Below, one piece after another: positions 3,526 through 30,083 of a stretch of 64,000 bases of DNA (positions within the stretch are counted from its first letter, which is position 1; every line of letters begins with the position of its first letter). The position numbers were made by a program, and so were the translations under genes. The notes under the pieces are model-generated. The model saw only the letters and a list, made by a program, of their open reading frames with translations. It did no database searches and was not told the origin of the DNA. The stretch lies in sequence record MK817115.1, one strand, 5' to 3'. The DNA is from Escherichia phage vB_EcoM_phAPEC6.

Positions 3526-5490
3526 ATGAGTATAAATCGAATTAGAGGTGATGGTGGTGTAATTATTGATAGTAAATCTTTTTTAGAGTTACCGAAAGCA
3601 CCATCAAAAGAAACCGCTGATGTAATAAGATCAGGGATGATTAGATACAATAAGGAATGGAAATCATTTGAAGGTGTTCTGGATTTTGAAGATGGTACTA
3701 TGGCATATCGCCGCTTTGCAAACTTAGATGCAAATGGTAAACTTCTTACTTCCCAATTACCAGATTCAGTAACTAGTGGTTTACAGTTTGTTGGTACATA
3801 CAATCCTATCCCAGATGATATTGATCCACCTTTAGCACAAACACCACTACCAGCACCAGCAGCATCACTAAATGGTGATTATTATGTTGTTCGTGGTATT
3901 ATGGATGCAGCACAAGCACACTTTGAAGCAAATAACCCACAAACAAGTCCGGTTACATTTACACCTACGAACCCAACTGGTCAAGGTAATTGGATTGAAA
4001 TTTTATATTATGTTGACTCCAATCCAAATATATCTGGTGCTAAACTTGTAACATACGCTTTTGCAAGAATTATTACTGCATCTATTCCTAGTACTGGTCA
4101 TGATGGTCTTAAAAATTTAGCAACAGATGCTGACTTAACCAAACCATTTGCTTCAGGCGTTCCAATGAACCAAACCGCACTATCAGATGGTGATTGGATC
4201 ATTATAACTGAAGATAAAAACATACGTCTACGCCAGTCAAGAACAAGCATTTCTGCTGCTTCTGTATTATATGACAATACAGTAATGATTGCAAACCATC
4301 GTCAATTTAGAACAAACGCAGGAACCGTACAAACATCCATAGATAACGTTGTGATTGAATGTTTACGTAGAACTGGTGATTCCATGTATAATGATGGAAC
4401 AAGCGGCTCAGGGCGTTTTGGTGTGGTCTATGGTAGTGCAGCAGCACCAGCATTGACATTTAATAACAATCCATTTGATCCAACCAATAACCCAGGTAAT
4501 GATCCTGCAAAATGGTCAGACGCTAATACTGGTATATTTCATCCAGCCGATGACGCAATTGGGTTCAGTACTGCTGGAACTGAACGTATTAGAATTAATA
4601 ATTCAACATTAACATTATACCAAACAACTTCAACCCCAGCATCAACCCCAGTACTAAGATTTGATAATGCAACCAATACTAATGTTGGACTAAGTGCTAG
4701 TAGTAATATTATTTCATTTAGTTCAATGAATAAAGTACAAGTTGAATTTAAAAATGGTGAAAGTGCGTTTCATGGTAATATTGTGGTTGATGGTACAAGT
4801 ACATTGACTGGTGATACATCAGCTAGTAATATCACTGCTAGTGGTAATTTGAACATTCAAGGTAATACTACATTAGGCGATGCTGCATCTGATACAATTA
4901 CAGTTAATGGAGTTAGTACGTTTACAGCAAACACTAATTTCAATGGAACAACTAATAAATTTAAAAATATAAATCTATTAGCTAATGGTATAATTACATT
5001 AGAAAGTACTACTAATCAAAGTACAATCCAATTAGTTAGTTCTGATTTAAAACTATCAATGGGTAATTATGCTGATGTAAGTATCTATGATAATGGAACT
5101 ATAAGAACACGTTTTAATAGATATGGTATCCAATTACCAGTACTAGCTACTATTGATAACTCTGTTGGCGTTGATGGTATGATTGCATACTCCAATACCG
5201 AGCGTACTTCAATGCAAAAAGTTCAAGGTCAATGGGTTCCAATTGGTTCAGGTTCAGTGAGAACCGATGCTTTTACAATTTCATCTTGGGTATTAAGTGG
5301 TAACTACTACACCCTTACTGTAACAGCCTCAAACATCGTCACAGCAGAGATACAGGAACAGGTTAGTCCTGGTGTCTATACTCGTGTTGAGGTCGATAGC
5401 GTTACGTTTAACGGCACTAACGTAGTGTTTAGTATACCTTCAACTCCTGATGTACGTTTCGACGGAAGAACATTGGTAACAATTAGATAA
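3526..5490 (+). CDS. Tail fibre-like structural protein
   Basis: 654 aa; shares motif LGDAASDTITVNGVSTF with LGDAAADTLTVNATSSF of the first ORF; RBS GAGG upstream; followed by strong hairpin terminator. Confidence 0.55.
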   Translation: MSINRIRGDGGVIIDSKSFLELPKAPSKETADVIRSGMIRYNKEWKSFEGVLDFEDGTMAYRRFANLDANGKLLTSQLPDSVTSGLQFVGTYNPIPDDIDPPLAQTPLPAPAASLNGDYYVVRGIMDAAQAHFEANNPQTSPVTFTPTNPTGQGNWIEILYYVDSNPNISGAKLVTYAFARIITASIPSTGHDGLKNLATDADLTKPFASGVPMNQTALSDGDWIIITEDKNIRLRQSRTSISAASVLYDNTVMIANHRQFRTNAGTVQTSIDNVVIECLRRTGDSMYNDGTSGSGRFGVVYGSAAAPALTFNNNPFDPTNNPGNDPAKWSDANTGIFHPADDAIGFSTAGTERIRINNSTLTLYQTTSTPASTPVLRFDNATNTNVGLSASSNIISFSSMNKVQVEFKNGESAFHGNIVVDGTSTLTGDTSASNITASGNLNIQGNTTLGDAASDTITVNGVSTFTANTNFNGTTNKFKNINLLANGIITLESTTNQSTIQLVSSDLKLSMGNYADVSIYDNGTIRTRFNRYGIQLPVLATIDNSVGVDGMIAYSNTERTSMQKVQGQWVPIGSGSVRTDAFTISSWVLSGNYYTLTVTASNIVTAEIQEQVSPGVYTRVEVDSVTFNGTNVVFSIPSTPDVRFDGRTLVTIR

Positions 5491-5491
5491 T

Positions 5492-5523
5492 AAAAAAGGG
5501 AGAACTGATGTTCTCCCTTTTCG
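5492..5523. terminator. Bidirectional intrinsic terminator between convergent genes
   Basis: AAAAAA-GGGAGAAC-TGAT-GTTCTCCC-TTTTT. Confidence 0.7.
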
Positions 5524-5524
5524 T

Positions 5525-6454
5525 TTATACAGCCATAGGTGCTTTAATTGTTGGCATTGGGTTGTAATTCACTAATTTAAAAGAATCCATAGTGAAATCT
5601 TCAATATTAGTAATTGTAGGATCAAGCCACAATTCAGGTAATTCACGAGGTTTTCGCTGTAGTTGTTCTTTTACTTGTTCAACGTGGTTTTTATAAATGT
5701 GACAATCACCACCATTCCAAATAAATTCACCAACATCTAAACCAGTAATTTGTGCAATCATATGAGTTAGTAGTGAGTAACTACTGATATTAAATGGAAC
5801 TCCTAAAAATAGATCAGCGGAGCGTTGATGCAGAATACAGCTTAGTTTTCCTTGCACTACACAAAATTGCACAAAGCTATGACAAGGTGGTAACGTCATA
5901 TCATCAAGCTCACCAACGTTCCATGCACTTAGAATGTGGCGACGGCCATATGGATCGGACTTTATACCTTTGATTAGTTCTTGTAATTGGTCAGTTGTAC
6001 GTTTCATAACAACACCATGTGAACCAGTATAATCGATAACTTTGTATCCTTTATCTTTTAATTCTTGAATTTCTTCAGTACTGGAACTAAATTTATAATC
6101 TTCCCATTCACGCCATTGCTTACCATACACTGGACCTAACTCACCATCAGTATAACCAAGAGCAACGCCTTGATTTAGGTAATTATCTGTCCAAATAGTT
6201 TTCTTTTCTGTATCACGAGTTCCATGCAAAATTTCACAAAGGCGACGCTCATCATGGGAACCTTCAATAAACCATAGTAATTCTGAAGTCATTGCTTTCC
6301 AAGCTAGACGTTTTGTCGTCACTGCTGGGAAACCATCTTTAAGGTCAAAACGCATTTGTTGACCGATAAGTTTGATTGTTCCAACACCAGTACGGTCAAC
6401 GCTTTCTACGCCTTCATCTAGAATTTTTTGATATAGTTCTTGTAGTTGTTTCAT
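5525..6454 (-). CDS. thyA: Thymidylate synthase (ThyA/Td family)
   Basis: N-terminus DRTGVGTIKLIGQQMRFDL...GFPAVTTKRLAW and C-terminal MPTIKAPMAV closely parallel T4 Td and bacterial ThyA. Confidence 0.9.
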   Translation of the reverse strand: MKQLQELYQKILDEGVESVDRTGVGTIKLIGQQMRFDLKDGFPAVTTKRLAWKAMTSELLWFIEGSHDERRLCEILHGTRDTEKKTIWTDNYLNQGVALGYTDGELGPVYGKQWREWEDYKFSSSTEEIQELKDKGYKVIDYTGSHGVVMKRTTDQLQELIKGIKSDPYGRRHILSAWNVGELDDMTLPPCHSFVQFCVVQGKLSCILHQRSADLFLGVPFNISSYSLLTHMIAQITGLDVGEFIWNGGDCHIYKNHVEQVKEQLQRKPRELPELWLDPTITNIEDFTMDSFKLVNYNPMPTIKAPMAV

Positions 6455-7047
6455 TATTCTTCCTTGAAAAATGTAATAAAATGTTCCATATGTTTTTCGG
6501 TGGCATTGCGTGAACCAATACCAGTCCAGTTACCATGTGGTGCTGGAACGACGAATGTTTGTGTGAACTCTTTCAGTACTGTATCGAAATAAAATACTGA
6601 ACGTGAATTCATATCATAACAATAAATTTCAGGATTTTCAACTGAATCCATATACATCTGTACTGCCCATGCAGTACCACCACTTACCTTAGTTGGTGAT
6701 GTGATATTTGCAATACAATATATTCTTTCTGTATTAAGTATCTGATAACTATTCCTTGCAAGTAAGTTGTAAACATAAGAACCAGGCTTTGGTACTTTTC
6801 GCTGCAACGAGTAACATGCAATGTTTAGTTGATTTAATATAGAAATATCAGATAGAATATTGGATGGTATTTCTAATATAGTACTTTCATCTACACTATG
6901 CTCATGACCTTTGAATGAAAAATTAATAACTTCAAATCCATTATTTTTTGCATAGATAGAAAAAAGGCGGTCAGCACCTGCTGCCCCGCCACTAAAACAT
7001 ACATTAGATAAACCTTTAATTGCTTCATCTAATTCATTCTTTTTCAT
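6454..7047 (-). CDS. Rossmann-like protein with SGGAAGAD motif (SLOG/DprA/YpsA-like superfamily candidate), translationally coupled to thyA
   Basis: Motif CFSGGAAGADRLFS near N-terminus; 1-nt stop/start overlap with thyA. Confidence 0.3.
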   Translation of the reverse strand: MKKNELDEAIKGLSNVCFSGGAAGADRLFSIYAKNNGFEVINFSFKGHEHSVDESTILEIPSNILSDISILNQLNIACYSLQRKVPKPGSYVYNLLARNSYQILNTERIYCIANITSPTKVSGGTAWAVQMYMDSVENPEIYCYDMNSRSVFYFDTVLKEFTQTFVVPAPHGNWTGIGSRNATEKHMEHFITFFKEE

Positions 7048-7050
7048 ATT

Positions 7051-7707
7051 TTATTTTGCTTTACGTTCTGCAAATAGTTGTTTTACTTTCTCAATAGCTT
7101 TAGTCTGTGAAATACCTTCTGGAATTTCTAGATAAATTGTTTTACTATCTTTCGGTTGTTCAACAACTTGTGTTTGCGGACGCAAGCTTGGCTCTAAATT
7201 GTATGCACGTTCATAATGTTCTTTAGCCAGTTGTTCATATTTTTGTGCATCAGAGAGAAGTTTTTCTACAATAGTAGCTTCTTCTACTTTAGTGTCTGCT
7301 TCTTGTGGATTGAATGGGTTAAAGTCTTTTACTTTACCATCTTCTTGTACTTTCGCTTGATTTTCATCTAATGCTTTGTTTAGAACATCAAGAGAAATTT
7401 TATTATTACCACCAGTGTGCATATCAATGTCACAAGTACGAACGCGACGTAGATGTTGCATGTTGTGTAGAACATCTAGCATTTTGCGTCCATCGAGATA
7501 ACCAATTTTATGCATTACTTCCCACAAATCAATATTAGATTGACCATGACCCATAACAATATCAGTTACTGCGTGAACATATGCTTCTGGTAGTGAATCA
7601 CGATAAACGATAAGGCAGTGTTCAGGATCATCTGGTAGTGAACGCCAAACAACAAAAACACGAGAACCTGTATTACGCATTACACCAACATGACGAATAG
7701 CTGCCAT
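7051..7707 (-). CDS. Hypothetical protein
   Basis: 218-aa ORF in co-directional array. Confidence 0.5.
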   Translation of the reverse strand: MAAIRHVGVMRNTGSRVFVVWRSLPDDPEHCLIVYRDSLPEAYVHAVTDIVMGHGQSNIDLWEVMHKIGYLDGRKMLDVLHNMQHLRRVRTCDIDMHTGGNNKISLDVLNKALDENQAKVQEDGKVKDFNPFNPQEADTKVEEATIVEKLLSDAQKYEQLAKEHYERAYNLEPSLRPQTQVVEQPKDSKTIYLEIPEGISQTKAIEKVKQLFAERKAK

Positions 7708-7709
7708 AA

Positions 7710-7970
7710 TTATTCTCCTTTATCTTCTTGAGTTTCACTATCTTGTGATTCAGCTTCTTCTTTAGCTGCATCTTCTTGTGCTTTAATATCTTCAAGAGCT
7801 ACATTTGCAAAAGAAACAAATTTAGATACAACTGGAGCAACCTCAACAAGTTCTTCAACTTTAAAGGTGTTTCGTGCAACAGCAGCTTCCATGATTTTTG
7901 CAGCATTGATTAGGTCTAGAAGGGTTAGTTGAATTTGATTATTTTCTTGTTCCATTTTAATACTCTCCAT
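7710..7970 (-). CDS. Hypothetical acidic protein
   Basis: 86-aa ORF, acidic C-terminus. Confidence 0.4.
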   Translation of the reverse strand: MESIKMEQENNQIQLTLLDLINAAKIMEAAVARNTFKVEELVEVAPVVSKFVSFANVALEDIKAQEDAAKEEAESQDSETQEDKGE

Positions 7971-8019
7971 GTATATTGGTACATTAACTATTATATCATA
8001 TTTTTATAAGTTGTCCCAC

Positions 8020-8053
8020 TTATAAAAGAAGAGAACGGAAAATTCCGTTCTCT
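8020..8053 (-). terminator. Intrinsic terminator after VWA gene
   Basis: 9-bp stem AGAGAACGG / CCGTTCTCT with U-rich tail on minus strand. Confidence 0.55.
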
Positions 8054-8064
8054 TTATTTAGTAC

Positions 8065-9489
8065 TTAACTACGTTGACGCTTTTTATCAGCTTCATATTC
8101 GTAGTGTACAGTCTCACCAAATGGTGCAACTTTATTTGGGTTACTGTGAATCACGAACAGTGTTTTACAGTAGTTTGGATCACCCCATGACTGCCACGGT
8201 TCACCATCAGTAAACATTACAAGCTGTTTAGGCTTGTAGTTGTCGTTCTTCATATGAACCCATACTGCTTCAAAGTCAGTACCACCACCACCTTTTACTG
8301 GATATTCCAGAATCTTACGTTCTTCGCCAGTTTTGTAATCCTTTACAGTATAAACTTCAGTATCAAAAGTCATGATACGAATCTTAAACTGTTTGAATTG
8401 TTTAGTGATGCCAAGAACTTCACTAATGAAATCACGAAGCATATCTTCAGAAATAGACCCAGAAGCATCTAGTGCAATCGCAATATCAATATCATCATCT
8501 GGTTTCATCCCTGGGTAAATTGGATTACCATAGAATGAACCATTAGAACCAAAACCAGCACCCCATGAACGACGAGAAGGACTTTGATACGTTGCATCAG
8601 ACTTCAACCAACTACGAAGTGTACGTTGAAGTTTTGAACGCCAGTCAATCTTTGGTTCTTTAAAGTTGTTAATCATACGAGCGATTTCTGCTGGTGTACC
8701 ACCTGCACGTGCAGCATTCATCATTGCTGTTTTGAAATCATCCATATAATCACGTTTTTGCTGTTCACTTGAACCACCTTCTTGACCTTCTTGTGGAACG
8801 TCATGCTGGTCAATGGTAGTACCTTTTGGTTTACCCTTACCATCTTTAATATCACCAAAAGTACCGCGATTTTTACCTTCACCTTCACCGCCGCCACTTT
8901 GTGGTTGACCTTCACCTTCACCATCTTCTTTTTGTTCTTCTTCTTCAAGAAGAATGTAAATCTCTTCTGCGGTCATACCTTCATATTTTTTATCATACAA
9001 CCATGAACTTTGGATTTTTCCAATTTTCTCACGAACGATGATTTGGTTAATGGCATAATCCGCTGCACGGTTATAACGTTGTGGATCACGCATACCACGA
9101 CGAAGGAAGTGATCGTAAGCACAGTGTAGAATTTCATGACAAATTACAGCAATAAGGTTTTCATCAGTCAAACCTTCAGTCATTTCTTTTAATTGTTCGT
9201 CTGTAACTTCAGGATGCTTTTCACGAATAGCTTCTTCATATTCTTTCTTTTTAGATGGGTCTTGAATACCCATTACAAATTCTACGTTGTAGAATAGATG
9301 TTTACCATCAACTGCTAGAGTACGACACCATGTATTATTAGGAACTGGACGTAAACGTGAAGCGAGTACACCAAAGAATGGTGCAGTTAACATCAAAGAT
9401 GTACGAGCCAGAACCAGACGATCTTGACATTCTTTCTGGAGTGCCGGAGATACTTCATTGAATCTGGAAGTAGATTTGTTATCTGACAT
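8065..9489 (-). CDS. VWA domain protein with N-terminal HExxH metallopeptidase-like motif
   Basis: HEILHCAYDH (HExxH) in N-terminal half; MIDAS-like DASGS in C-terminal half; low-complexity G/E-rich linker. Confidence 0.7.
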   Translation of the reverse strand: MSDNKSTSRFNEVSPALQKECQDRLVLARTSLMLTAPFFGVLASRLRPVPNNTWCRTLAVDGKHLFYNVEFVMGIQDPSKKKEYEEAIREKHPEVTDEQLKEMTEGLTDENLIAVICHEILHCAYDHFLRRGMRDPQRYNRAADYAINQIIVREKIGKIQSSWLYDKKYEGMTAEEIYILLEEEEQKEDGEGEGQPQSGGGEGEGKNRGTFGDIKDGKGKPKGTTIDQHDVPQEGQEGGSSEQQKRDYMDDFKTAMMNAARAGGTPAEIARMINNFKEPKIDWRSKLQRTLRSWLKSDATYQSPSRRSWGAGFGSNGSFYGNPIYPGMKPDDDIDIAIALDASGSISEDMLRDFISEVLGITKQFKQFKIRIMTFDTEVYTVKDYKTGEERKILEYPVKGGGGTDFEAVWVHMKNDNYKPKQLVMFTDGEPWQSWGDPNYCKTLFVIHSNPNKVAPFGETVHYEYEADKKRQRS

Positions 9490-9520
9490 GTATATTTCCT
9501 CGTTTAGTTAAGATAAAAGA

Positions 9521-9552
9521 AGGATACCATTAGGCATCCTTCTTGTCAACAA
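9521..9552 (-). terminator. Hairpin with U-tract between MoxR and VWA genes (terminator or attenuator)
   Basis: GAAGGATGCC-UAAU-GGUAUCCUUC followed by UUUUAUC on minus strand. Confidence 0.45.
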
Positions 9553-15629: not shown

Positions 15630-17737
<2,108 letters not shown>

Positions 17738-17748
17738 TCATTATCTCC

Positions 17749-18525
17749 TTAAAATCCTACACTACCAAAAACACGATCAATGATATCTAAACCTTGATTG
17801 ACATTTTCAGGTAAAAGTGAATTAATTCTGGTACTATACATTTCTTCAATATTATCAAATTGTATACAATTATCTGGTTTGATAGTAACTACCATTTCAA
17901 CTGGAGAACTTGAGCTATAATCTAATGAATCGTATGATATGTTTTGAATAACACATCCGGTTAAAACAAAGTATTCCATAACACCAGCACTGTTATATGA
18001 AGAACCACCAATAAATTGATCTACTGCATTTACTAAGCCAGAATTATTTGTTGCAGCAGTTGCAGCATCTACTAGAGTATCTCTTCCTAGATTTCCTAGT
18101 GTATCATCTGAGTTACGTCCACTCAACATCTGTATAACCAAACCAAATTTATAAGAACCATAATCTTGGTCATTTCTGGAAGTTATTCTACGTTGAAAGT
18201 CAAGTTGTTTTTGTAATTGTCGTGATAATGCTTTTGCTGATGCATTACCAACTGAATCACGGATAGATATTGTAATTGGTTCCCAATCATGACTACCTAT
18301 ATAGGAAGTATTAGTAGTAAATTGATATAGTTTATGAGTACTAAATGTTACAGTAGGTCTATCAATTTTATCAACATCTAATGCGATGTGATCACGTTCA
18401 TCTATATCAGTACCGAAATTATACACAATAACACGAAACTTGTATTTTGCTTTCGGTTGTAGCATTGAACGATTACGCCCCGATGGTAAAGGAACGCCAT
18501 ATTTATTAATCATGTTATTTGCCAT
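17749..18525 (-). CDS. Putative tail tube protein, paralog 2
   Basis: Paralogous to 18620-19306 (shared YGVPL, QPKAKYKFRVI, RDSVGNASAKAL); position downstream of sheath. Confidence 0.5.
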   Translation of the reverse strand: MANNMINKYGVPLPSGRNRSMLQPKAKYKFRVIVYNFGTDIDERDHIALDVDKIDRPTVTFSTHKLYQFTTNTSYIGSHDWEPITISIRDSVGNASAKALSRQLQKQLDFQRRITSRNDQDYGSYKFGLVIQMLSGRNSDDTLGNLGRDTLVDAATAATNNSGLVNAVDQFIGGSSYNSAGVMEYFVLTGCVIQNISYDSLDYSSSSPVEMVVTIKPDNCIQFDNIEEMYSTRINSLLPENVNQGLDIIDRVFGSVGF

Positions 18526-18570
18526 AGCAACCTCTTTTTATTTTATAAGGCATTATACTTTATTTAGCAT

Positions 18571-18597
18571 AAAAAAAGCCCCGAATAGATTCGAGGC
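18571..18597 (-). terminator. Intrinsic terminator between the two tube paralogs
   Basis: Minus-strand GCCUCGAA-UCUAU-UCGGGGC followed by UUUUUUU. Confidence 0.6.
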
Positions 18598-18619
18598 TAT
18601 ATATTAAGTTTAAATAAAA

Positions 18620-19306
18620 TTAATTTTCGTAGAAGTTACTATCTGGTAGAGTAGTACTACTAATATTAGTTTGTGCACCAGAAATAGAGGTAGCAGTTGA
18701 TGGATTACCGAAGCCACTAACTTCATCACCGAACGCTTCGCCATTTGGACCCAATTTAGCACAACCATCTGGTTGAACAGTCATTGAAATAACTTGTGCT
18801 TCACTTGAGGAATAATCCCAATCACCAAAGTTGCTGGATTCAATAAAGCAACCTTGACATACCCAAGTACTCAATGTTCCTTCAAACAAGTTTGTTGTAT
18901 TTTCACTATTAGAACCATCAAGCTCTTGAATCCACATTTCAAATTTAAATTGTGAATCTGTCATGCGAGATTCTTGACTGTAGTAGTTGAATTCTTTACG
19001 CATTTGGTTGTATAGTGCTTTAGCAGAAGCATTACCTACTGAGTCACGGAAAGCAACATCAATTGTATCCCAAGTGTACTTACCTTTATAGTGTGCAGAA
19101 CTGTTGTAACTATGAACAGTAACATTTTCATGTGATACAGATACTGCCCCAACTGTATTGGTGTCTAGTGTAATCATATTACCATCATCATTAGTACCAA
19201 AACCAAAGAAAATAACACGAAATTTGTATTTTGCTTTTGGTTGTTTCATAGAGATACGACCACCGCCAGCGAGCGGTACGCCATATCGATCAAGCATTGT
19301 AGCCAT
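18620..19306 (-). CDS. Putative tail tube protein, paralog 1
   Basis: Immediately downstream of tail sheath gene; RBS AGGAG; paralog of 17749-18525. Confidence 0.5.
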   Translation of the reverse strand: MATMLDRYGVPLAGGGRISMKQPKAKYKFRVIFFGFGTNDDGNMITLDTNTVGAVSVSHENVTVHSYNSSAHYKGKYTWDTIDVAFRDSVGNASAKALYNQMRKEFNYYSQESRMTDSQFKFEMWIQELDGSNSENTTNLFEGTLSTWVCQGCFIESSNFGDWDYSSSEAQVISMTVQPDGCAKLGPNGEAFGDEVSGFGNPSTATSISGAQTNISSTTLPDSNFYEN

Positions 19307-19668
19307 TTATATTCTCCTATTATGGAATGACATCTTTATATTATTTATCTATCTGGAAGTATATTTTTAATTAACTAAAGTGTCATCAACAGGGAACCAA
19401 TTAATATTAACACAATATAAGTATCTTTTTCGTTTAGTGTGGTCAATATAGTTTACTGATATAGACCATTTTCCATTTGTGTATACTTCGTATTTTTCAA
19501 TTATACCGACAATCTTCCAAATTTTTTAAAAATATATTTAGTATGTGTACTGATTCCAACTGAGTTAAAACTATTTTACTGACATCTTGTATTGTTTTTT
19601 TTAGTATTTCTTCCATATCCATAATGTTCCTTTATAACATCAATATAAAGGTATTTAATTTTAATCAA

Positions 19669-19693
19669 TAAAAAAGGGAACCAAAAGGTTCCC
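19669..19693 (-). terminator. Intrinsic terminator after tail sheath gene
   Basis: Perfect GGGAACC-AAAA-GGTTCCC hairpin flanked by A-run and T-rich sequence. Confidence 0.6.
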
Positions 19694-19701
19694 TTAGTGT
19701 T

Positions 19702-22365
19702 TTATTGAGTTTTCTCGATACGGATTGGTACGTAAATGAAGTTAATACTCTTAGTTGGTTGAATTGCAATATCCATCCAAAGTTCATTACGGTCAATACG
19801 CTCTGCGGTGTTGTTACTTTCATCACAAACCACTGCGAAGTTATAAAGACCCTGTTGTTGAACAATTTCAGCCAAGAAGCTATTAACTACACCACTAAAT
19901 TCCTGACGAGTACTTGGAGTATTCAAACGGAATAGGAATGGTTCGGAAATAATTTCTAGTTGACGACGAATATAAACAACTAAACGAGCAACGTTAACAC
20001 GACTTAGTGCAGAAGTTTGATTAGCAGATAGAGTTTTATCTCCATAAACAAGCAAACCACGGTTAGGACGCATTGCAATTGGGTTAATGTTGTTAGTATA
20101 CATAACGTCACGTTGACCTTGGTTGTATACTACTGGTTGATATTCACCTTCGCTGTTGATAAAACCAGTACTTGCAGCGTTTGTTACAACACCACGAGTT
20201 GTACCAGCAGGTGGATACCATACATAACTAACACTATCACTGTATGCATATGTACGCATTGCAATAGTACTACCAGGAACTGCAACTTCTTCACCATCAA
20301 CGTTAGTACTTAGACACCAACCCATATACTGAGCAGCATAATCATAAGCAGTTGTACGACCAACTGAACCGTTGCTTGGTGCATTGTTAGCATTAGTAGC
20401 CCATTGTTGTACAGCACTACCGTTTCCGGTTGGATTCAAACGTGCTGGAACGTCAGTAACAATAAATGCAGTTTCTTTACGATCAGTGTTTAAAGTTACA
20501 CATTCATCAAGTGTTTCAACGTAACCAGGTACACAAATTAGGTTAAAATCAATAAATTCAGAACGAATGTCATCATTACCAATAATAACAGCAGCTAGTG
20601 CTTCAACTACTAGTTGACGTTGTGCAGCACGACCAAATAGGCCAGCACCATCAAGACTTACACCACTAACAACTTCCCATTGACCATTAACCATTTTCTT
20701 AACAACACCTTCAGTGTTACCTAGGTCAACTGCAAGCATACCATTTTGATACAATGCCGCAGCAGGAACTTGGCTTGGGAAATTAAAGTCTTGGAAAATC
20801 ATACCATTTAGTGTACTTTGATCAGTACTGTCAAGTTTAACCCATTCACCATCAACGTTACGATAGAAATCATAACCATCAATGCCTTGAGACAAAGGAC
20901 AAACCCAAATTAAACGGTCAGCCGCTGGTTCATCAACTTGTACATATTTGTTTTCTTCTTGTACTAGATCCCATTCATCATTAGCAACATCAGCAACATA
21001 CATAGTTACAGTTAGATTATCGGAGTTCCCGAAATCATACCAGAGAGTTCCTTCTTTTGCTACACTACGTGGTACTGAATAACTAACACGGAAGTTATTA
21101 ACGTTAATTAGAGAGTAGTTGTTACTATCTACAGTTAGTTTTTGTAGTTCAGGTTCAGCAAAAATATCATCACCACTTTGTGTGATTTTGAAACTGTAAC
21201 CTTTTGTATTGGAAACAACTAAACCACCATTAGTTTCACGTTTAAATTTAAAACCATCGTTAATAATTTCAGCATTTGCATTTAGATTATTGATGATAGT
21301 TTGGGTATTAATAACACCGCCTTGTGGAACTGCTAGTACTTTAACTGATTTATTCAAATAAACAAAAGTCATATAACTATCAGCACCTGCTTGTTCAATA
21401 ATAGTTTCACCAAGTGGCAAAGCAGGAGCACTAATTGTTGTTAGTTTTGCACTTTGAATATAGAAAGAGAAACTCTTACTATCTTCATCAAAACGAGATG
21501 CGATATAACTATTGTTTAGTACACCACTTTTCGCTTCAATTTCTTGGAATGAATTACCAGTATATGCTGGTACAATATTCCAAACTTGAGTTAGGGATGC
21601 ATAACGTTTAATAACAAAACGAGTACCAAAATAGTTTGAACCATTTTGGGTGTAACCATCACGAATCCAAATGTTACCTTTTTCTACAGTTGAGCCAACT
21701 GGAACTTTGTTAATTGGTGATAGATAAGTTTCCATTTGCACTAGCCCAGAAGCAGAACGTTTATACATTAGCATCTGACCATTGCTTGGTTTGTAACGTA
21801 GAACTAAATCATCAACATTTAAACCTACTAGACTTACATCTTCAACTTCTTCAGCACTTACAATAGTTACTGGCTTAAGTTGCCAATCATAAAAACTGCT
21901 TGGACTATCTTTCTTCGCTACATACGCTTCTACTTGTGATTGTGCGGTATCAAACCACAAAGTACCATTGGATACTGGGCCAGTTGGTGCTTCAGCACTT
22001 GGTGCTAGTTGTGCTAGATCGATATCAGCACGAATTACATATGCACGGTTAGTAATGCCTAGATAAGAATATACTGCATGTAGGCCATATTCGTTTAGTT
22101 CATCACCTTGAACAACAGAACCGTTATTCATTTGAAAAATTGGTGTACCATAGGTATCAAGTGAGCTTTTTTGTGATGTTAGAAGCTGTAGTTTTCCAGC
22201 GTTTGCTTTAGTAGTTCCCGCAGCTATTGCACTGCTTCCTGGGACAAGTTTGTCTTCAGCAGTAGCGATTACAAATAGTGGTACAGTGCCAGGAGCAGCA
22301 GCGGTACTCATACTTTCATCAGTTACTGAAATGGAAACGCCAGGTGAGAGTAGATCTCCTGCCAT
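19702..22365 (-). CDS. Tail sheath protein
   Basis: 887 aa; N-terminus LLSPGVSISVTDES resembles the conserved LLSPG start of T4 gp18-type sheath proteins; synteny with tube. Confidence 0.75.
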   Translation of the reverse strand: MAGDLLSPGVSISVTDESMSTAAAPGTVPLFVIATAEDKLVPGSSAIAAGTTKANAGKLQLLTSQKSSLDTYGTPIFQMNNGSVVQGDELNEYGLHAVYSYLGITNRAYVIRADIDLAQLAPSAEAPTGPVSNGTLWFDTAQSQVEAYVAKKDSPSSFYDWQLKPVTIVSAEEVEDVSLVGLNVDDLVLRYKPSNGQMLMYKRSASGLVQMETYLSPINKVPVGSTVEKGNIWIRDGYTQNGSNYFGTRFVIKRYASLTQVWNIVPAYTGNSFQEIEAKSGVLNNSYIASRFDEDSKSFSFYIQSAKLTTISAPALPLGETIIEQAGADSYMTFVYLNKSVKVLAVPQGGVINTQTIINNLNANAEIINDGFKFKRETNGGLVVSNTKGYSFKITQSGDDIFAEPELQKLTVDSNNYSLINVNNFRVSYSVPRSVAKEGTLWYDFGNSDNLTVTMYVADVANDEWDLVQEENKYVQVDEPAADRLIWVCPLSQGIDGYDFYRNVDGEWVKLDSTDQSTLNGMIFQDFNFPSQVPAAALYQNGMLAVDLGNTEGVVKKMVNGQWEVVSGVSLDGAGLFGRAAQRQLVVEALAAVIIGNDDIRSEFIDFNLICVPGYVETLDECVTLNTDRKETAFIVTDVPARLNPTGNGSAVQQWATNANNAPSNGSVGRTTAYDYAAQYMGWCLSTNVDGEEVAVPGSTIAMRTYAYSDSVSYVWYPPAGTTRGVVTNAASTGFINSEGEYQPVVYNQGQRDVMYTNNINPIAMRPNRGLLVYGDKTLSANQTSALSRVNVARLVVYIRRQLEIISEPFLFRLNTPSTRQEFSGVVNSFLAEIVQQQGLYNFAVVCDESNNTAERIDRNELWMDIAIQPTKSINFIYVPIRIEKTQ

Positions 22366-22459
22366 ATTAAATCCTCCAAAAATAATTGGTTATTCGAAAT
22401 ATATTCGTATAGTCTTATTTATTGAAGGATTTAATTGTCCAGTCCTTATTGTTTATAAT

Positions 22460-23086
22460 TTATGTATTAGAATAAATAATGTCCATTGCTTTTTTATGTA
22501 AATCATCAATAGTACTGTTATTCTGTACAATTATATCAGGATTGTTTATGCCAATCCAAGCCCACTCAGATTCGTGTACTGATTCTAGTTCAACTGGTTT
22601 AATATTAATATCCCCTTTATTATAAGAGGCCGCCAAACCATACCAATGTGGTAGAACACGTTGAACTTCAATAATAGTCCCATTTTGCGATCTAATCATT
22701 TTTAATTCATTTGGAAAACGGCAATCAGTGATGATGATATTTCCATCTATTTCTTGCATTGATTTTTCTAAACTGAATACCCAAATATCATTATGAAAAT
22801 ACTTACGCAAAATATTAGTACCATAATTCTGCAATACCCATCGAGGGGATACATCACTACGACCTAACTTATCACACCAGTACTGGTCCGGTTCTTCACG
22901 AATCTTACGACTTTCCTTAGTTGAACCTTCAAGCATTTCACGATCCCATCCAAAAATAGCAGCAACGGAATCTTTAAGATTAGTTGCAAATGACATTCTG
23001 GTGTAACCATTATTAATAAAAGTTTCTCCAAAAGTATCTTTACCACTTCCAATAGTACCGTTAATTGCAATTATTTGTCTTTCCAT
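22460..23086 (-). CDS. Deoxynucleoside monophosphate kinase (T4 gp1-like)
   Basis: P-loop NGTIGSGKDT at N-terminus; size and layout as T4 dNMP kinase. Confidence 0.65.
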   Translation of the reverse strand: MERQIIAINGTIGSGKDTFGETFINNGYTRMSFATNLKDSVAAIFGWDREMLEGSTKESRKIREEPDQYWCDKLGRSDVSPRWVLQNYGTNILRKYFHNDIWVFSLEKSMQEIDGNIIITDCRFPNELKMIRSQNGTIIEVQRVLPHWYGLAASYNKGDINIKPVELESVHESEWAWIGINNPDIIVQNNSTIDDLHKKAMDIIYSNT

Positions 23087-23104
23087 AATACTTCTCCATG
23101 TATA

Positions 23105-23374
23105 TTATATAAGTACTACTAAATCCTTTCCTACTAAACATTCAAGTAATTGAACTATAAACTCGCTCCCATAATATATAGTAACATAAGTGATGTAGAA
23201 TGTTTCTCCATTATCATCACGACATATACTCGCCCACGCGTTTATTCGATCTCTACCGAAAACATCAACGATTGATTCTTTTAAAAATTTCCAGAATTTT
23301 TCAGTTGACTCATAATCTAATGTAGGTGCACCACAACTATATTTGTTATACATTGCATCTATGTTGTTATTCAT
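23105..23374 (-). CDS. Hypothetical protein
   Basis: 89-aa ORF. Confidence 0.4.
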   Translation of the reverse strand: MNNNIDAMYNKYSCGAPTLDYESTEKFWKFLKESIVDVFGRDRINAWASICRDDNGETFYITYVTIYYGSEFIVQLLECLVGKDLVVLI

Positions 23375-23420
23375 GTTAGGTTCCTTAAGATTAATATTAT
23401 CATTATATCACATAATGTGA

Positions 23421-23447
23421 AAAAGACTCCATATAGGAGTCTTTTTT
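23421..23447. terminator. Intrinsic terminator hairpin
   Basis: AGACTCC-ATAT-AGGAGTCT flanked by A-run and TTTTTT. Confidence 0.55.
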
Positions 23448-23450
23448 AAT

Positions 23451-24257
23451 TTAACCAATAATCATACCTAGTGGTTCAGCACCATCTTGATAACGTTTCA
23501 AACGCTCTTTAAGCTGTTCCTGAAGTTGTAATCCTTCATTACGTAATGTATCACCATCCATAGAAAACGTTCCCTGTGGACCTGGAAGAGAAGCAAATTT
23601 GGCACGGTTACGACCCAACATAATCATGGCTTCAGACAATGCCCAATCACGTAGCCAAGGATAACTTTGCTGTCTTTGAAACAACAATGGTTCAGGAATA
23701 TTATGATATACGTGTAATAGTACTTCTTCAGTACCGCGAATATCACGATCTATAATTAATTTTTTGGTCATTGGGTTAAATTGAAATATAATATCACGAC
23801 CAAACATACGACCTACCAGTTCTTGGAACTGAAAACTAAAATCATATGTAGTTAGATCATATCCACCTGCATTTCGTGCTGAAGTCAATAAGTAAGTGTT
23901 GGTGAATGCTAGAGAAAACGGATCTACTGAGTTCCCACTACCAGAACTTAAGTAACCATTACCATAACGATAAATCTTTTTAACAATTTCAACTTCAGTT
24001 GGTAGCATATATACAGATTGTGAATCATAAAATTTCATATTTAAAAATGCTTCTTCTTTAGAAGCAGAACTCCACGCTCTGTAATTCGATACCGCATTAT
24101 CAATTGCAATTTCTAATTGACCATCAGTAATTTCTACCTCAACGGCCCCAGCACCCAACATTTGAGTGATAACATCTTTCAGTTTTTCACGATGGTCAAA
24201 GTTAGGAGCATCAGGGTTTCCACCCATATAATCGTAAGACATAAAAAAGCACCTCAT
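23451..24257 (-). CDS. Hypothetical protein
   Basis: 268-aa ORF followed by terminator hairpin. Confidence 0.5.
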   Translation of the reverse strand: MRCFFMSYDYMGGNPDAPNFDHREKLKDVITQMLGAGAVEVEITDGQLEIAIDNAVSNYRAWSSASKEEAFLNMKFYDSQSVYMLPTEVEIVKKIYRYGNGYLSSGSGNSVDPFSLAFTNTYLLTSARNAGGYDLTTYDFSFQFQELVGRMFGRDIIFQFNPMTKKLIIDRDIRGTEEVLLHVYHNIPEPLLFQRQQSYPWLRDWALSEAMIMLGRNRAKFASLPGPQGTFSMDGDTLRNEGLQLQEQLKERLKRYQDGAEPLGMIIG

Positions 24258-24503
24258 TAATGTTTATATACATTATTTAGAGGTGCTAATAGTTATTTTG
24301 AATTATACAAGCAGTACAGGTATACCAATGGAGTAAAATGCTCGGAATCTATTATATATATTAACTGAGTAACATATATTCCATATAGATCTCGTGATTT
24401 ATCTCTGTACATTAACAATGATTTATTTAAGTAAGGATCAACCCAGTACTTAATATCATTGTACTTCAACGTGTTGTTACGGTAACCTGACAGTTTCGAA
24501 TTT

Positions 24504-28286: not shown

Positions 28287-28709
28287 TTAAATTAATCTAT
28301 CACGTAGACGGTCGTAATATTTTTCGTGTATAGCTAGTATACACTGATATGCAGAATAGTCAATGCCAAATGTATCATCAATGAACATGTACTGATCAAG
28401 TGTTTCTGGTCCATTATCATCAACTGGTAATGTCCCTTCTTTTTTTGATAGGGTGTGCCACATCAACTCACTTTCAATATGGTGAGTTGCGTATGTCAAT
28501 TCAATCTTACTTTTTCTTAGTAAAATTAACAATTCATCATTGTCGTCGAGTGCATTACGAAATTTAATACGAACAGTACCCTGAAAATTATTAGTGTACA
28601 TAACACGATGTTGATTATATGTAACTAAACCACGTCTTTCAGTACTGATTTCATGTTCAGCAAAGTACTTTAACGTTTCATTAAATTTTGGAATTTTAGT
28701 AACGTCCAA
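28287..28709 (-). CDS. Hypothetical protein, paralog of 28696-29112
   Basis: Shared motif F(I/E)DDTFGID(Y/F)..YQ.I. Confidence 0.5.
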   Translation of the reverse strand: MDVTKIPKFNETLKYFAEHEISTERRGLVTYNQHRVMYTNNFQGTVRIKFRNALDDNDELLILLRKSKIELTYATHHIESELMWHTLSKKEGTLPVDDNGPETLDQYMFIDDTFGIDYSAYQCILAIHEKYYDRLRDRLI

Positions 28710-29112
28710 TCACATAATCCTCATAAAGTTCGTATACCCTCATTATACTCTGATATGTTTCAAAGTCAATGCCAAAGGTATCCTCAATGAACTGATATTG
28801 CATAAACTCTTCCTCTGTAGCAGCAATAGGAAGAGTCCCGTTTCGTTGTTCTGTTGATTGAACATCCTCAATATACATCAACACTATACTTTCATCCAGA
28901 TTTATATCTATCATAAAAACATCTTCACTATAAAATAAGTTATATGTACGGATGAAGAGATTTCCTGTTCTATCATAACTTGACACGTGTGTTTCATAAT
29001 ACATTTTATCTAAACTAAAGAACAAACCTGTACTATCTGGCTTTTTAGTATTTTTTAATTTAATTTCGATAGCATCAATCATAGGTTTAATATCAAACTT
29101 TTTCATATACAA
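28696..29112 (-). CDS. Hypothetical protein, paralog of 28287-28709
   Basis: Shared motif FIEDTFGIDFETYQSI. Confidence 0.5.
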   Translation of the reverse strand: MYMKKFDIKPMIDAIEIKLKNTKKPDSTGLFFSLDKMYYETHVSSYDRTGNLFIRTYNLFYSEDVFMIDINLDESIVLMYIEDVQSTEQRNGTLPIAATEEEFMQYQFIEDTFGIDFETYQSIMRVYELYEDYVIGRY

Positions 29113-29288
29113 ATCACATACTTATTACTATGTGGTTCGTAACAATATGAATCATTTACCTTAATACCAGGCTTAAGTTCAATAGTTGTTCCTGTTTCTG
29201 TACTGGGTTCTGCATCACAATAAATCATCACACCAACCCCGACTAGTAAGGATATGATACATATAACTATACATATTGTATATTCCAT
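29103..29288 (-). CDS. Small membrane protein
   Basis: 61 aa with N-terminal hydrophobic helix ICIVICIISLLVGVGVMIY. Confidence 0.4.
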   Translation of the reverse strand: MEYTICIVICIISLLVGVGVMIYCDAEPSTETGTTIELKPGIKVNDSYCYEPHSNKYVICI

Positions 29289-29301
29289 AAATTTATCTCC
29301 A

Positions 29302-29697
29302 TTATAAAAAGTAATTATACAGTTTATTGTACAATATAAAAAGGTCTTTCACATTATCATAAGTAATATCAGATACATCATGAATTAATGATAACTGAAA
29401 AAATGAAGCTTCGTCTATTTCTGCTGGAATTATAACATCACCATCGTCTTCGTCCATTTTATTGGTGTAGTATTTTATGTGATCTACATTCAACTCAATA
29501 GAAAACGCAATGTTGGTTTTTGTATAATCTTCAATTAATCCAATATATTGAGATTTTTCATTAATAAAAAATCCAATCCCAACACAACGGTTATCTGGAT
29601 ATGGATAGTACCATCTATTAATAACTAAGTGTTCAGGTAAGTCCATATCATGTGTTGATATTAGAGATTTTACAATTTCCATCCAGGAATAATTCAT
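29302..29697 (-). CDS. Hypothetical protein
   Basis: 131-aa ORF. Confidence 0.45.
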   Translation of the reverse strand: MNYSWMEIVKSLISTHDMDLPEHLVINRWYYPYPDNRCVGIGFFINEKSQYIGLIEDYTKTNIAFSIELNVDHIKYYTNKMDEDDGDVIIPAEIDEASFFQLSLIHDVSDITYDNVKDLFILYNKLYNYFL

Positions 29698-29713
29698 AAT
29701 TAAAACTCCATAA

Positions 29714-29740
29714 GAAAAGGGACAGAATTAATCTGTCCCT
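29714..29740 (-). terminator. Intrinsic terminator after HPF-like gene
   Basis: AGGGACAGA / TCTGTCCCT 9-bp stem, U-rich tail on minus strand. Confidence 0.55.
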
Positions 29741-29750
29741 TTAGTATATA

Positions 29751-30083
29751 TTACTCTTCGTTTTCTGTCAAATCATCAAGAACTGGGTGTTCTGGATGGT
29801 TTCGGCGGTGTAATTTAATGCTTTTGTCTTTACTGAATACAGTTTCCATTTTTTCAAATGAATCACCAATTGCTTTGTATAAATCTGCTGCATCGGCAGT
29901 AACTGATTTACTACCTGATGTTAGAGTCACAGAGTATTGAGACTTATGCTCTTTCTTCACATGAACTTCAATATCCATTACAGTTGAAGTACGGAACTTT
30001 TCAAGACATTTAGCACCATCGTAAATTGCATCTTGAATTGCAAGAGTAAAATCAACATTACCTTGAATATTTAATTTTAGCAT
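29751..30083 (-). CDS. hpf: Ribosome hibernation promoting factor (HPF/RaiA/YfiA family) homologue
   Basis: MLKLNIQGNVDFTLAIQDAI...LEKF...DLYKAIGDSFEKME aligns by eye with E. coli HPF MQLNITGNNVEITEALREFV...DMYAAIDGLIDKL; about 110 aa as short-form HPF. Confidence 0.6.
   Translation of the reverse strand: MLKLNIQGNVDFTLAIQDAIYDGAKCLEKFRTSTVMDIEVHVKKEHKSQYSVTLTSGSKSVTADAADLYKAIGDSFEKMETVFSKDKSIKLHRRNHPEHPVLDDLTENEE

Follow-up and report, generated by a model that had tools for sequence, protein, structure and literature searches.

The DNA analyzed here is a stretch of 64,000 nucleotides of the genome of Escherichia phage vB_EcoM_phAPEC6 (MK817115.1), referred to below as the window, and the subject of the analysis is a set of three tube-fold genes, named A, B, and C, that follow the tail sheath gene. 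Positions 16000-22500 of the window show 99.9% identity to Escherichia phages 121Q, SP27, and PBECO4, which are jumbo myophages of the Asteriusvirus genus with genomes of ~350 kb, belong to the RaK2-like clade, and are distant relatives of T4. Every gene of the tail block is located in the minus strand, in the order deoxynucleoside monophosphate (dNMP) kinase, sheath, A, B, C, and gp4-like gene:

22460-23086, minus strand: T4 gp1-like dNMP kinase gene (121Q annotation), the upstream boundary of the block
19702-22365, minus strand: tail sheath gene (887 aa; 121Q gp551), matching Pfam Phage_sheath_1C at 1.7e-14 and phrog_10581 'tail sheath' at E = 0; fraction of E. coli optimal codons (Fop) 0.53
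18620-19306, minus strand: gene A (228 aa; 121Q gp552), matching phrog_4542 'tail tube protein' at 5e-86 and phrog_45 at 5e-4; most likely the major tail tube protein gene
17749-18525, minus strand: gene B (258 aa; 121Q gp553), tube-fold paralogue, whose product probably forms a low-copy ring at one end of the tube
16643-17737, minus strand: gene C (364 aa; 121Q gp554), matching phrog_13438 'tail tube protein', phrog_4542 at 1e-5, and phrog_45 at 7e-4
16215-16643, minus strand: T4 gp4-like head completion gene, matching Pfam Tn7_TnsA-like_N at 2e-16 and phrog_218 'head closure' at 2e-40; it marks the end of the block

The whole block (16215-23086, minus strand) is thus flanked by gp1-like and gp4-like genes, and the genes 1-3-2-4 of T4 have the same order and orientation. 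This correspondence of the flanks indicates that the sheath and tube genes occupy the place of T4 genes 3 and 2, which encode the tube terminator and the DNA end protector, respectively; no gp2-like gene was seen in the block. The gap between B and C is 11 nt long and holds an AAGGAG ribosome-binding site, and the start of the gp4-like gene overlaps the stop codon of C. Gene A is encoded directly downstream of the sheath gene, as expected of a member of the tube family, and this is also the case in RaK2, GAP32, and PA5oct. The order sheath, A, B, C is common to the window, RaK2, and GAP32, and recurs in PA5oct without B. The products of all three genes (121Q gp552-554) are already labeled 'tail tube protein' in RefSeq, and all three were noted as 'structural protein' in the original GenBank record of 121Q.

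A preliminary description of this locus had reported two adjacent paralogous genes, and the open reading frames (ORFs) of A and B, both in the minus strand, are placed exactly as it described them. Their products share 41% identity over 147 aa in a BLASTP comparison (E 7e-35), and the identical blocks YGVPL, QPKAKYKFRVI, and RDSVGNASAKAL, which had been quoted in that description, are all present in the end-to-end alignment of the full-length proteins. The N-terminal arm and several core motifs of A and B are nearly identical; B contains an insertion of ~32-40 aa relative to A, and the C-terminal tails of the two proteins are unrelated. The designation of this arrangement as a duplication is correct for A and B, but it overlooked C, which is a third, more divergent tube-fold paralogue, so that the locus represents a triplication rather than a duplication. 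The comparison of the C family (83 sequences) with the A/B family (119 sequences) by hhalign gave a probability of 98.6% and an E value of 5.7e-16 over 194 columns. The C protein consists of a tube-like core with an N-terminal extension of ~50 aa and a Gly/Ala/Ser-rich C-terminal extension of ~85 aa, the tail of which ends with GLGNILGDF. A C-like gene is kept as far as PA5oct (492 aa) and Salicola phage SCTP-2 (408 aa). T4-type phages normally carry several paralogues of the tube fold: gp19, gp3, and gp54 of T4 share one PHROG family, phrog_45 (gp3 at 5.8e-44).

The tube-like nature of A and B, which the preliminary description had proposed to examine by profile search and structure prediction, is supported by both approaches. 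Not only A but also B (8e-80) matches phrog_4542 'tail tube protein', and so does T4 gp19 (5.3e-10), while no match to this family was obtained for T4 gp3 and gp54. In Pfam searches, A, B, and C themselves had no meaningful match, A and B being below every threshold, including that of PF06841 (the T4 gp19 family); nevertheless, five distant members of the A/B alignment match PF06841, with the best E value of 7.8e-6. Nothing relevant was found in Pfam for any of the 83 members of the C family. Searches of PDB by sequence (phmmer with A, phmmer with B, and hmmsearch with the 119-sequence profile) returned only chance matches to TRPV1 with E > 0.1. An exhaustive profile search yielded 2,431 cluster representatives at E <= 1e-3, and among the best 150 of these 2,431 most are ~200 aa long. 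When profiles of the A, B, O, and C families were aligned by hhalign with single sequences of T4 gp19, gp3, gp48, gp54, gp15, and gp2, the probabilities were below 20% in all cases.

The AlphaFold2 models of A and B (mean predicted local distance difference test scores, pLDDT, of 81.4 and 71.2, respectively, with low confidence in the insertion and C-terminus of B) have the same order of strands and helices. Their Foldseek matches in PDB are almost only tube-type proteins of contractile systems. The model of A matched T4 gp3 (6.9e-9), T4 gp19 (4.7e-8), and also the tubes of PVC, AFP, and cyanophage A-1(L), and the matches found for A and B together include T4 gp19, gp3, gp54, and the PVC/AFP tubes. 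Both proteins have the Hcp/gp19 tube fold, namely, a beta-sandwich with one flanking alpha-helix. The best structural match of the B model is T4 gp3; the ranking of fold matches was dropped as a means to tell an initiator from a terminator, as it does not discriminate between them. The tube of phage phiKp24 (8bfk) was also considered as a homologue and rejected, being a poor structural match and belonging to a phiKZ-like sheath lineage. Taken together, the PHROG, PF06841, fold, and profile-search results indicate that A and B belong to the gp19-type tube family as long-branch members.

A tblastn search detected two copies in every RaK2-like genus examined, namely, in phages of Escherichia, Klebsiella, Cronobacter, Pectobacterium, Salmonella, Erwinia, Serratia, Yersinia, and Xanthomonas and a phage of Vibrio, and one copy in the PA5oct-like phages, Atu_ph07, and XacN1. 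The set of tube paralogues is a conserved feature of the whole clade. In a neighbor-joining tree, which is too rough to assess asymmetric rates, A and B are placed as sister clades within a radiation of ~200-aa tube-family sequences, and those of the latter that are of known origin (e.g., PA5oct) are single-copy tube genes. The B protein is intact and of constant length (257-258 aa) over ~75 sequence clusters, with 49-93% identity, the insertion included. An independent expansion of the tube family was found in phage SCTP-2, where five consecutive candidate paralogues (genes 445-449; 4667-9525 of the stretch examined) precede the C-like gene, of which only 447-449 were confirmed by tblastn. 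In Vibrio phage 2.275.O (4501-9672 of the stretch examined), a pectin-lyase-fold gene and a reverse-strand gene are located between the two copies, and the second copy lies 4 nt upstream of the C-like gene.

Several predicted transcription signals accompany the sheath and tube genes:

22408-22421, minus strand: candidate late-promoter motif TAAATAAGACTATA of the sheath gene, conserved ahead of this gene in RaK2 and GAP32 too
19667-19695, minus strand: predicted intrinsic terminator after the sheath stop codon, with a 9-bp stem AAGGGAACC/GGTTCCCTT followed by a U-run
19337-19347, minus strand: candidate late-promoter motif TAAATAATATA of gene A, of the form TAAATAA-N(0-4)-TATA
18570-18598, minus strand: predicted intrinsic terminator between A and B, with a 9-bp stem AGCCUCGAA/UUCGGGGCU followed by U7
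18554-18566, minus strand: candidate late-promoter motif TAAATAAAGTATA of gene B, of which GCTAAATA is kept upstream of B in RaK2 and GAP32

Intrinsic terminators between the two copies and after the sheath gene had been noted in the preliminary description, and differential dosage of the gene products had been suggested on this basis. Both predicted sites have the features of rho-independent terminators, namely, a GC-rich hairpin and a U-run in the coding strand past the stop codon. In the sheath terminator, the stem (19695-19674) is followed by TTTTATT and has a folding free energy of -14.9 kcal/mol (z -3.9), and in the A terminator, the stem (18598-18577) is followed by TTTTTTT and has a folding free energy of -12.6 kcal/mol (z -3.5); in neither case did any of 200 shuffled sequences fold as well. 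Both terminators are annotated (ARNOLD prediction) in the GenBank record of phage G17. In RaK2 and GAP32, terminators are present at the same two positions with unrelated stem sequences, and the conservation of the position despite the lack of relation between the stems argues for the terminator function. The search of Rfam with the region 16000-23500 returned only sub-threshold matches, which lie over the terminators. The suggestion of differential dosage gains indirect support from the conserved terminator positions and from the codon usage, in which A groups with the sheath gene and B with genes of low-copy proteins in three genera (see below).

The motif TAAATAA-N(0-4)-TATA occurs four times in the 64 kb, in each case in the minus strand and 25-50 nt upstream of a structural gene, namely, the gp13-like neck gene, the sheath gene, A, and B. 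The expected number under a first-order Markov model is 1.4 (P ~0.05), the test being partly circular, as the motif was derived from three of the four sites. Related motifs precede the same genes in RaK2 and GAP32, and 121Q encodes a gp55-like late sigma factor, for which the motif is a candidate late promoter. Promoters of the sigma-70 type are not enriched (31 found vs. 35 expected), and the consensus of T4 late promoters, TATAAATA, is strongly depleted in the whole window (1 occurrence vs. 10.7 expected from shuffles). If the motif acts as a promoter, the likely transcription units are promoter-sheath-terminator, promoter-A-terminator, and promoter-B-C, the last of which probably includes also the gp4-like gene.

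The assignment of A as the major tail tube protein is the most likely one, and it is based on three independent lines of evidence: codon bias, conservation, and similarity to the tube of single-tube relatives. In the phage, Fop tracks the copy number of the product: the value for A (0.54) equals that of the sheath gene (0.53), the scaffold (0.61) and major capsid protein (0.68) genes have higher values, and the values for B (0.40) and C (0.42) are in the range of those for the gp15-like (0.40), portal (0.43), and gp6-like (0.43) genes, with the window median of 0.43. The same division is seen in RaK2 (0.53 and 0.51 on the A/sheath side vs. 0.43 and 0.39 on the B/C side) and in GAP32 (0.53 and 0.56 vs. 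0.45 and 0.42), and in PA5oct, the Fop of the single tube gene is 0.55 and that of the gene of the C-like protein 0.39. Between genera, no other gene of the block is conserved as well as A. The protein identities for the pairs 121Q-RaK2, 121Q-GAP32, and RaK2-GAP32 are 80, 76, and 72% for A, 70, 72, and 65% for the sheath protein, 73, 61, and 63% for B, and 77, 67, and 64% for C. Finally, the single tube protein of PA5oct resembles A more closely (37% identity, 135 bits) than it resembles B (32% identity, 83 bits), and its comparison with the copies of RaK2 and GAP32 gives the same result. These sequence relations indicate that A keeps the ancestral character and that B is the derived copy.

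The presence of the products of these genes in virions was verified with the use of published proteomic data. In RaK2 virions, the A homologue gp042 was detected with 5 peptides (23.3% coverage) and the B homologue gp043 with 3 peptides (17.1% coverage) (supplement of PMC3622015). In virions of phAPEC6, which is itself an Asteriusvirus, gp275c (25.07 kDa), gp274c (28.76 kDa), and gp273c (40.42 kDa), paired by us with A, B, and C, respectively, by gene order and molecular weight only, were represented by 2, 3, and 7 peptides (Table 1, PMC7247149). Thus, the absence of both proteins from tail preparations, which would speak against their role as tail components, is contradicted by two virion proteomes. 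The sheath protein of phAPEC6 was represented by 36 peptides (68% coverage), and 25 hexameric sheath rings per tail were reported (PMC7247149). In the RaK2 study of 2013, the tube protein was not identified, and the unrelated proteins gp106 and gp107 were proposed instead (PMC3622015). The 121Q proteins gp617 and gp618 (28563-29866 of the stretch examined) are small virion proteins with very high Fop values of 0.61 and 0.64, close to that of the major capsid protein, and may correspond to the abundant RaK2 proteins gp106 and gp107. The papers on phages JP4 and fEgEco12 contain no usable data on the tube proteins.

According to the model that we propose, the tail-tube module of jumbo myophages of the 121Q/RaK2 type comprises three tube-fold paralogues encoded after the sheath gene. 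Protein A would polymerize as stacked hexamers within the sheath of ~25 rings, being made at a high level from its own late promoter, with a terminator on each side serving as insulation. Gene B would stem from a tube gene duplication in the ancestor shared by the RaK2-like phages, and C would be an older, more divergent paralogue. Genes B and C would be co-transcribed and probably translationally coupled past the A terminator, so that their products would be made in small amounts, and each of them would most likely form one hexameric ring as an adaptor between the A tube and a partner other than the tube, in the way exemplified by T4 gp54 and gp48 at the baseplate-tube junction and by the tube terminator gp3. 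We consider this model, with A as the major tube protein and B and C as low-copy adaptor rings, to be probable as a whole. The paralogy, tube fold, occurrence in virions, terminator hairpins, and codon bias difference are observed facts, and the copy numbers, the formation of rings, their place in the tail, and the activity of the promoters are inferred from them. Rings of low copy number are probably formed by B and C at one end of the tube or at both, and the best reading of B is that of a terminator or initiator analogue, as had been supposed in the preliminary description.

The assignment of adaptor functions to B and C is supported by the gene content of 121Q. This phage carries T4-like gp15, gp13, gp6, gp25, and gp5 genes, but no homologue of gp3, gp48, or gp54 is annotated across its region 221-348 kb. 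The PHROG scan of ten 121Q virion proteins encoded near the baseplate genes revealed no gp3-, gp48-, or gp54-like protein and recognized only the gp15-like one (gp579; phrog_227, 3e-16), and the scan of all ORFs of the 221-348 kb region with hidden Markov models revealed no fourth tube paralogue. In T4 and phiKZ, the adaptor rings are tube-fold proteins: T4 gp3 is a gp19-like ring (PMC12929629), and phiKZ gp88 is a tube-like initiator (PMC13250141). Since adaptors are needed, none of the gp3, gp48, or gp54 type is recognized, and the adaptor rings of other systems have the tube fold, it is economical to suppose that such rings are supplied by B and C.

As to the location of these rings, we slightly prefer the arrangement in which B and C form two rings of the baseplate-proximal junction, although we hold it tentatively, at somewhat less than an even chance. 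The N-terminal arm and the DYSSS loop of B, which are head-proximal, are the parts best conserved with A, and this favors the role of an initiator, which must present an A-like top face to the tube. Additionally, B is tightly coupled to the extended and divergent C in a manner similar to that of T4 genes 54 and 48, which favors a junction pair. The C profile weakly matched T4 gp54, with an E value of 0.0015 in a database of 12 sequences, but the hhalign probability for this pair is only ~1%, and C has no match to phrog_230 (the gp48 family). Genes B and C are separated by 40-60 kb from the baseplate and hub genes of 121Q and do not form a group with those of the hub and tape measure.

Certain observations weigh against the model or its preferred arrangement. 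Codon bias is an indirect proxy of expression, and the genes compared are short. The peptide counts from phAPEC6 virions (A 2, B 3, C 7), which are not quantitative, do not put A highest. The C homologue of RaK2, gp044, is not listed among the virion proteins of this phage (supplement of PMC3622015). PA5oct manages without B. Furthermore, the insertion of B falls at the equivalent of the T4 gp3 loop 117-121, on the head-proximal face, which favors a terminator. The low counts of A may be explained by its scarce usable tryptic peptides, of which A has ~7 (maximum coverage ~27%), as compared with 12 in B and 18 in C.

The position of this insertion is central to the alternative in which B is the head-proximal terminator of the tube, i.e., a T4 gp3 analogue that caps the A tube and docks the enlarged gp15-like gp579, while C alone forms the baseplate-tube junction. 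In T4, the loop in question contacts gp15, and in 121Q, a gp15-like gene is present, with no gp3 homologue annotated or recognized; moreover, the block is placed between the gp1-like and gp4-like genes, in the position of T4 gene 3. However, the same loop is enlarged in A and C too, which means that an insertion there need not block stacking, and the baseplate-proximal hairpin and 107-121 loop of B, which a terminator would need to bind the top face of A, are diverged from A and least conserved with it. B also has no match to phrog_45, which holds gp3, even at E <= 10, and neither hmmsearch with the B profile nor its hhalign comparison with gp3 gave a significant result. The tight coupling of B and C suggests a joint action rather than a division between the two tube ends. 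We regard the placement of B at the head and of C at the baseplate as rather unlikely, and the junction of B and C at the baseplate remains the preferred arrangement; the probability left by these two arrangements and by the two-protein tube considered next falls to other possibilities.

A tube built of two proteins, with A and B both stoichiometric (as rings that alternate, as hexamers or rings of mixed composition, or as separate proximal and distal segments), would be in line with the similar peptide counts and coverage of A and B in two independent virion proteomes, with the ancient duplication kept in each RaK2-like genus examined, and with the near identity of the N-terminal arm and several core motifs. 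Nevertheless, a conserved terminator separates A from B, the codon bias in three genera groups A with the sheath gene and B with genes of proteins present in 6-12 copies, and the peptide counts of A understate its amount for the reason given above. B differs from A by its ~40-aa insertion and C-terminal tail, relatives with a single tube gene build the tail without B, and no helical tube of two proteins is present among the solved contractile tails returned by the fold searches, all of which makes such a tube improbable. The possibility that B is a redundant or decaying duplicate of no distinct role, and the terminator incidental, is disfavored still more, to the point of being highly improbable. 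The somewhat faster evolution of B as compared with A, apparent from the identities given above, would fit a decay, but B is intact, length-constant, and conserved together with its insertion, it is found in virions, and the positions of the terminator and the promoter-like motif are conserved across genera. The preferred reading is thus that of A as the major tube protein and of B and C as adaptor rings.

The comparison of the module with known systems reveals both similarities and differences. Like T4 gp19, with which it has a detectable sequence relation, A is a virion protein encoded immediately downstream of the sheath gene. It is larger (228 aa vs. 163 aa), its top loop is longer, and a conserved extension of ~45 aa is present at its C-terminus; in contrast to gp19, A and B have neither a match at the Pfam threshold nor a relative in PDB detectable by sequence. 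T4 gp3, a paralogue of gp19, sits atop the tube as one hexameric ring and binds gp15 (PMC12929629), and its gene is flanked by genes 1 and 4, a placement similar to that of B and C. However, B is the product of a recent event in which the tube gene proper was duplicated, it does not belong to the gp3 lineage, and it is larger (258 aa with the 40-aa insertion vs. 176 aa). T4 gp54 and gp48, phiKZ gp88, Afp5, Afp7, and Pvc5 are extended tube-fold proteins that form one ring each between the hub and the tube. The T4 genes 48 and 54 are adjacent, with a 1-nt overlap, and their coupling resembles that of B and C, but B and C adjoin the sheath, tube, and head-completion genes instead of the hub and tape-measure genes. 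The closest parallel with a single tube is Pseudomonas phage PA5oct (Wroclawvirus), in which the order of the block (dNMP kinase, sheath, tube, C-like, gp4-like) is the same and the tail-module proteins are all virion-associated according to electrospray ionization tandem mass spectrometry. It differs in having a single tube gene of 206 aa and no B, a larger C-like protein (492 aa), an additional structural protein of 151 aa encoded between the C-like and gp4-like genes, and a homing endonuclease gene between the sheath and tube genes.

Two further features of the window are located in or near the block:

24265-24279, minus strand: candidate late-promoter motif of the neck gene, of the form TAAATAA-N(0-4)-TATA
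19497-19622, minus strand: 41-aa ORF MDMEEILKKTIQDVSKIVLTQLESVHILNIFLKNLEDCRYN inside the sheath-to-A spacer, with its own ribosome-binding site

The sheath-to-A spacer (19307-19701) is 395 nt long in the window as compared with ~110-120 nt in RaK2 and GAP32, and its extra sequence is found only in Escherichia and Salmonella phages of the Asteriusvirus type. The 41-aa ORF is annotated as a hypothetical protein in several records, and in a second species group it is 78% identical, vs. ~86% for the surrounding block. The GC skew of the window is negative in nearly all 2-kb bins from ~6 kb on, which is consistent with the mostly minus-strand genes, while the first 6 kb have the opposite skew and plus-strand ORFs.

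The tail tube annotation of all three proteins is already known, as is the recruitment of tube paralogues as end adaptors by contractile tails. What is new is the assignment of A as the major tube protein and the evidence that at least one adaptor goes back to a tube gene duplication specific to this lineage, its dosage being probably set by a conserved terminator. The general view of contractile tails is unchanged; a two-component tube, if true, would be unlike any helical tube among the solved contractile-tail structures that were returned by the fold searches. Our results attribute functions to the components of a tail module that was left uninterpreted in the original RaK2 study, and they may be of use in the annotation of many RaK2-like genomes and in the fitting of future cryo-electron microscopy maps. 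They also provide a testable model of how the adaptor rings, which are built of gp3, gp48, and gp54 in T4, would be supplied in a T4-related jumbo phage.

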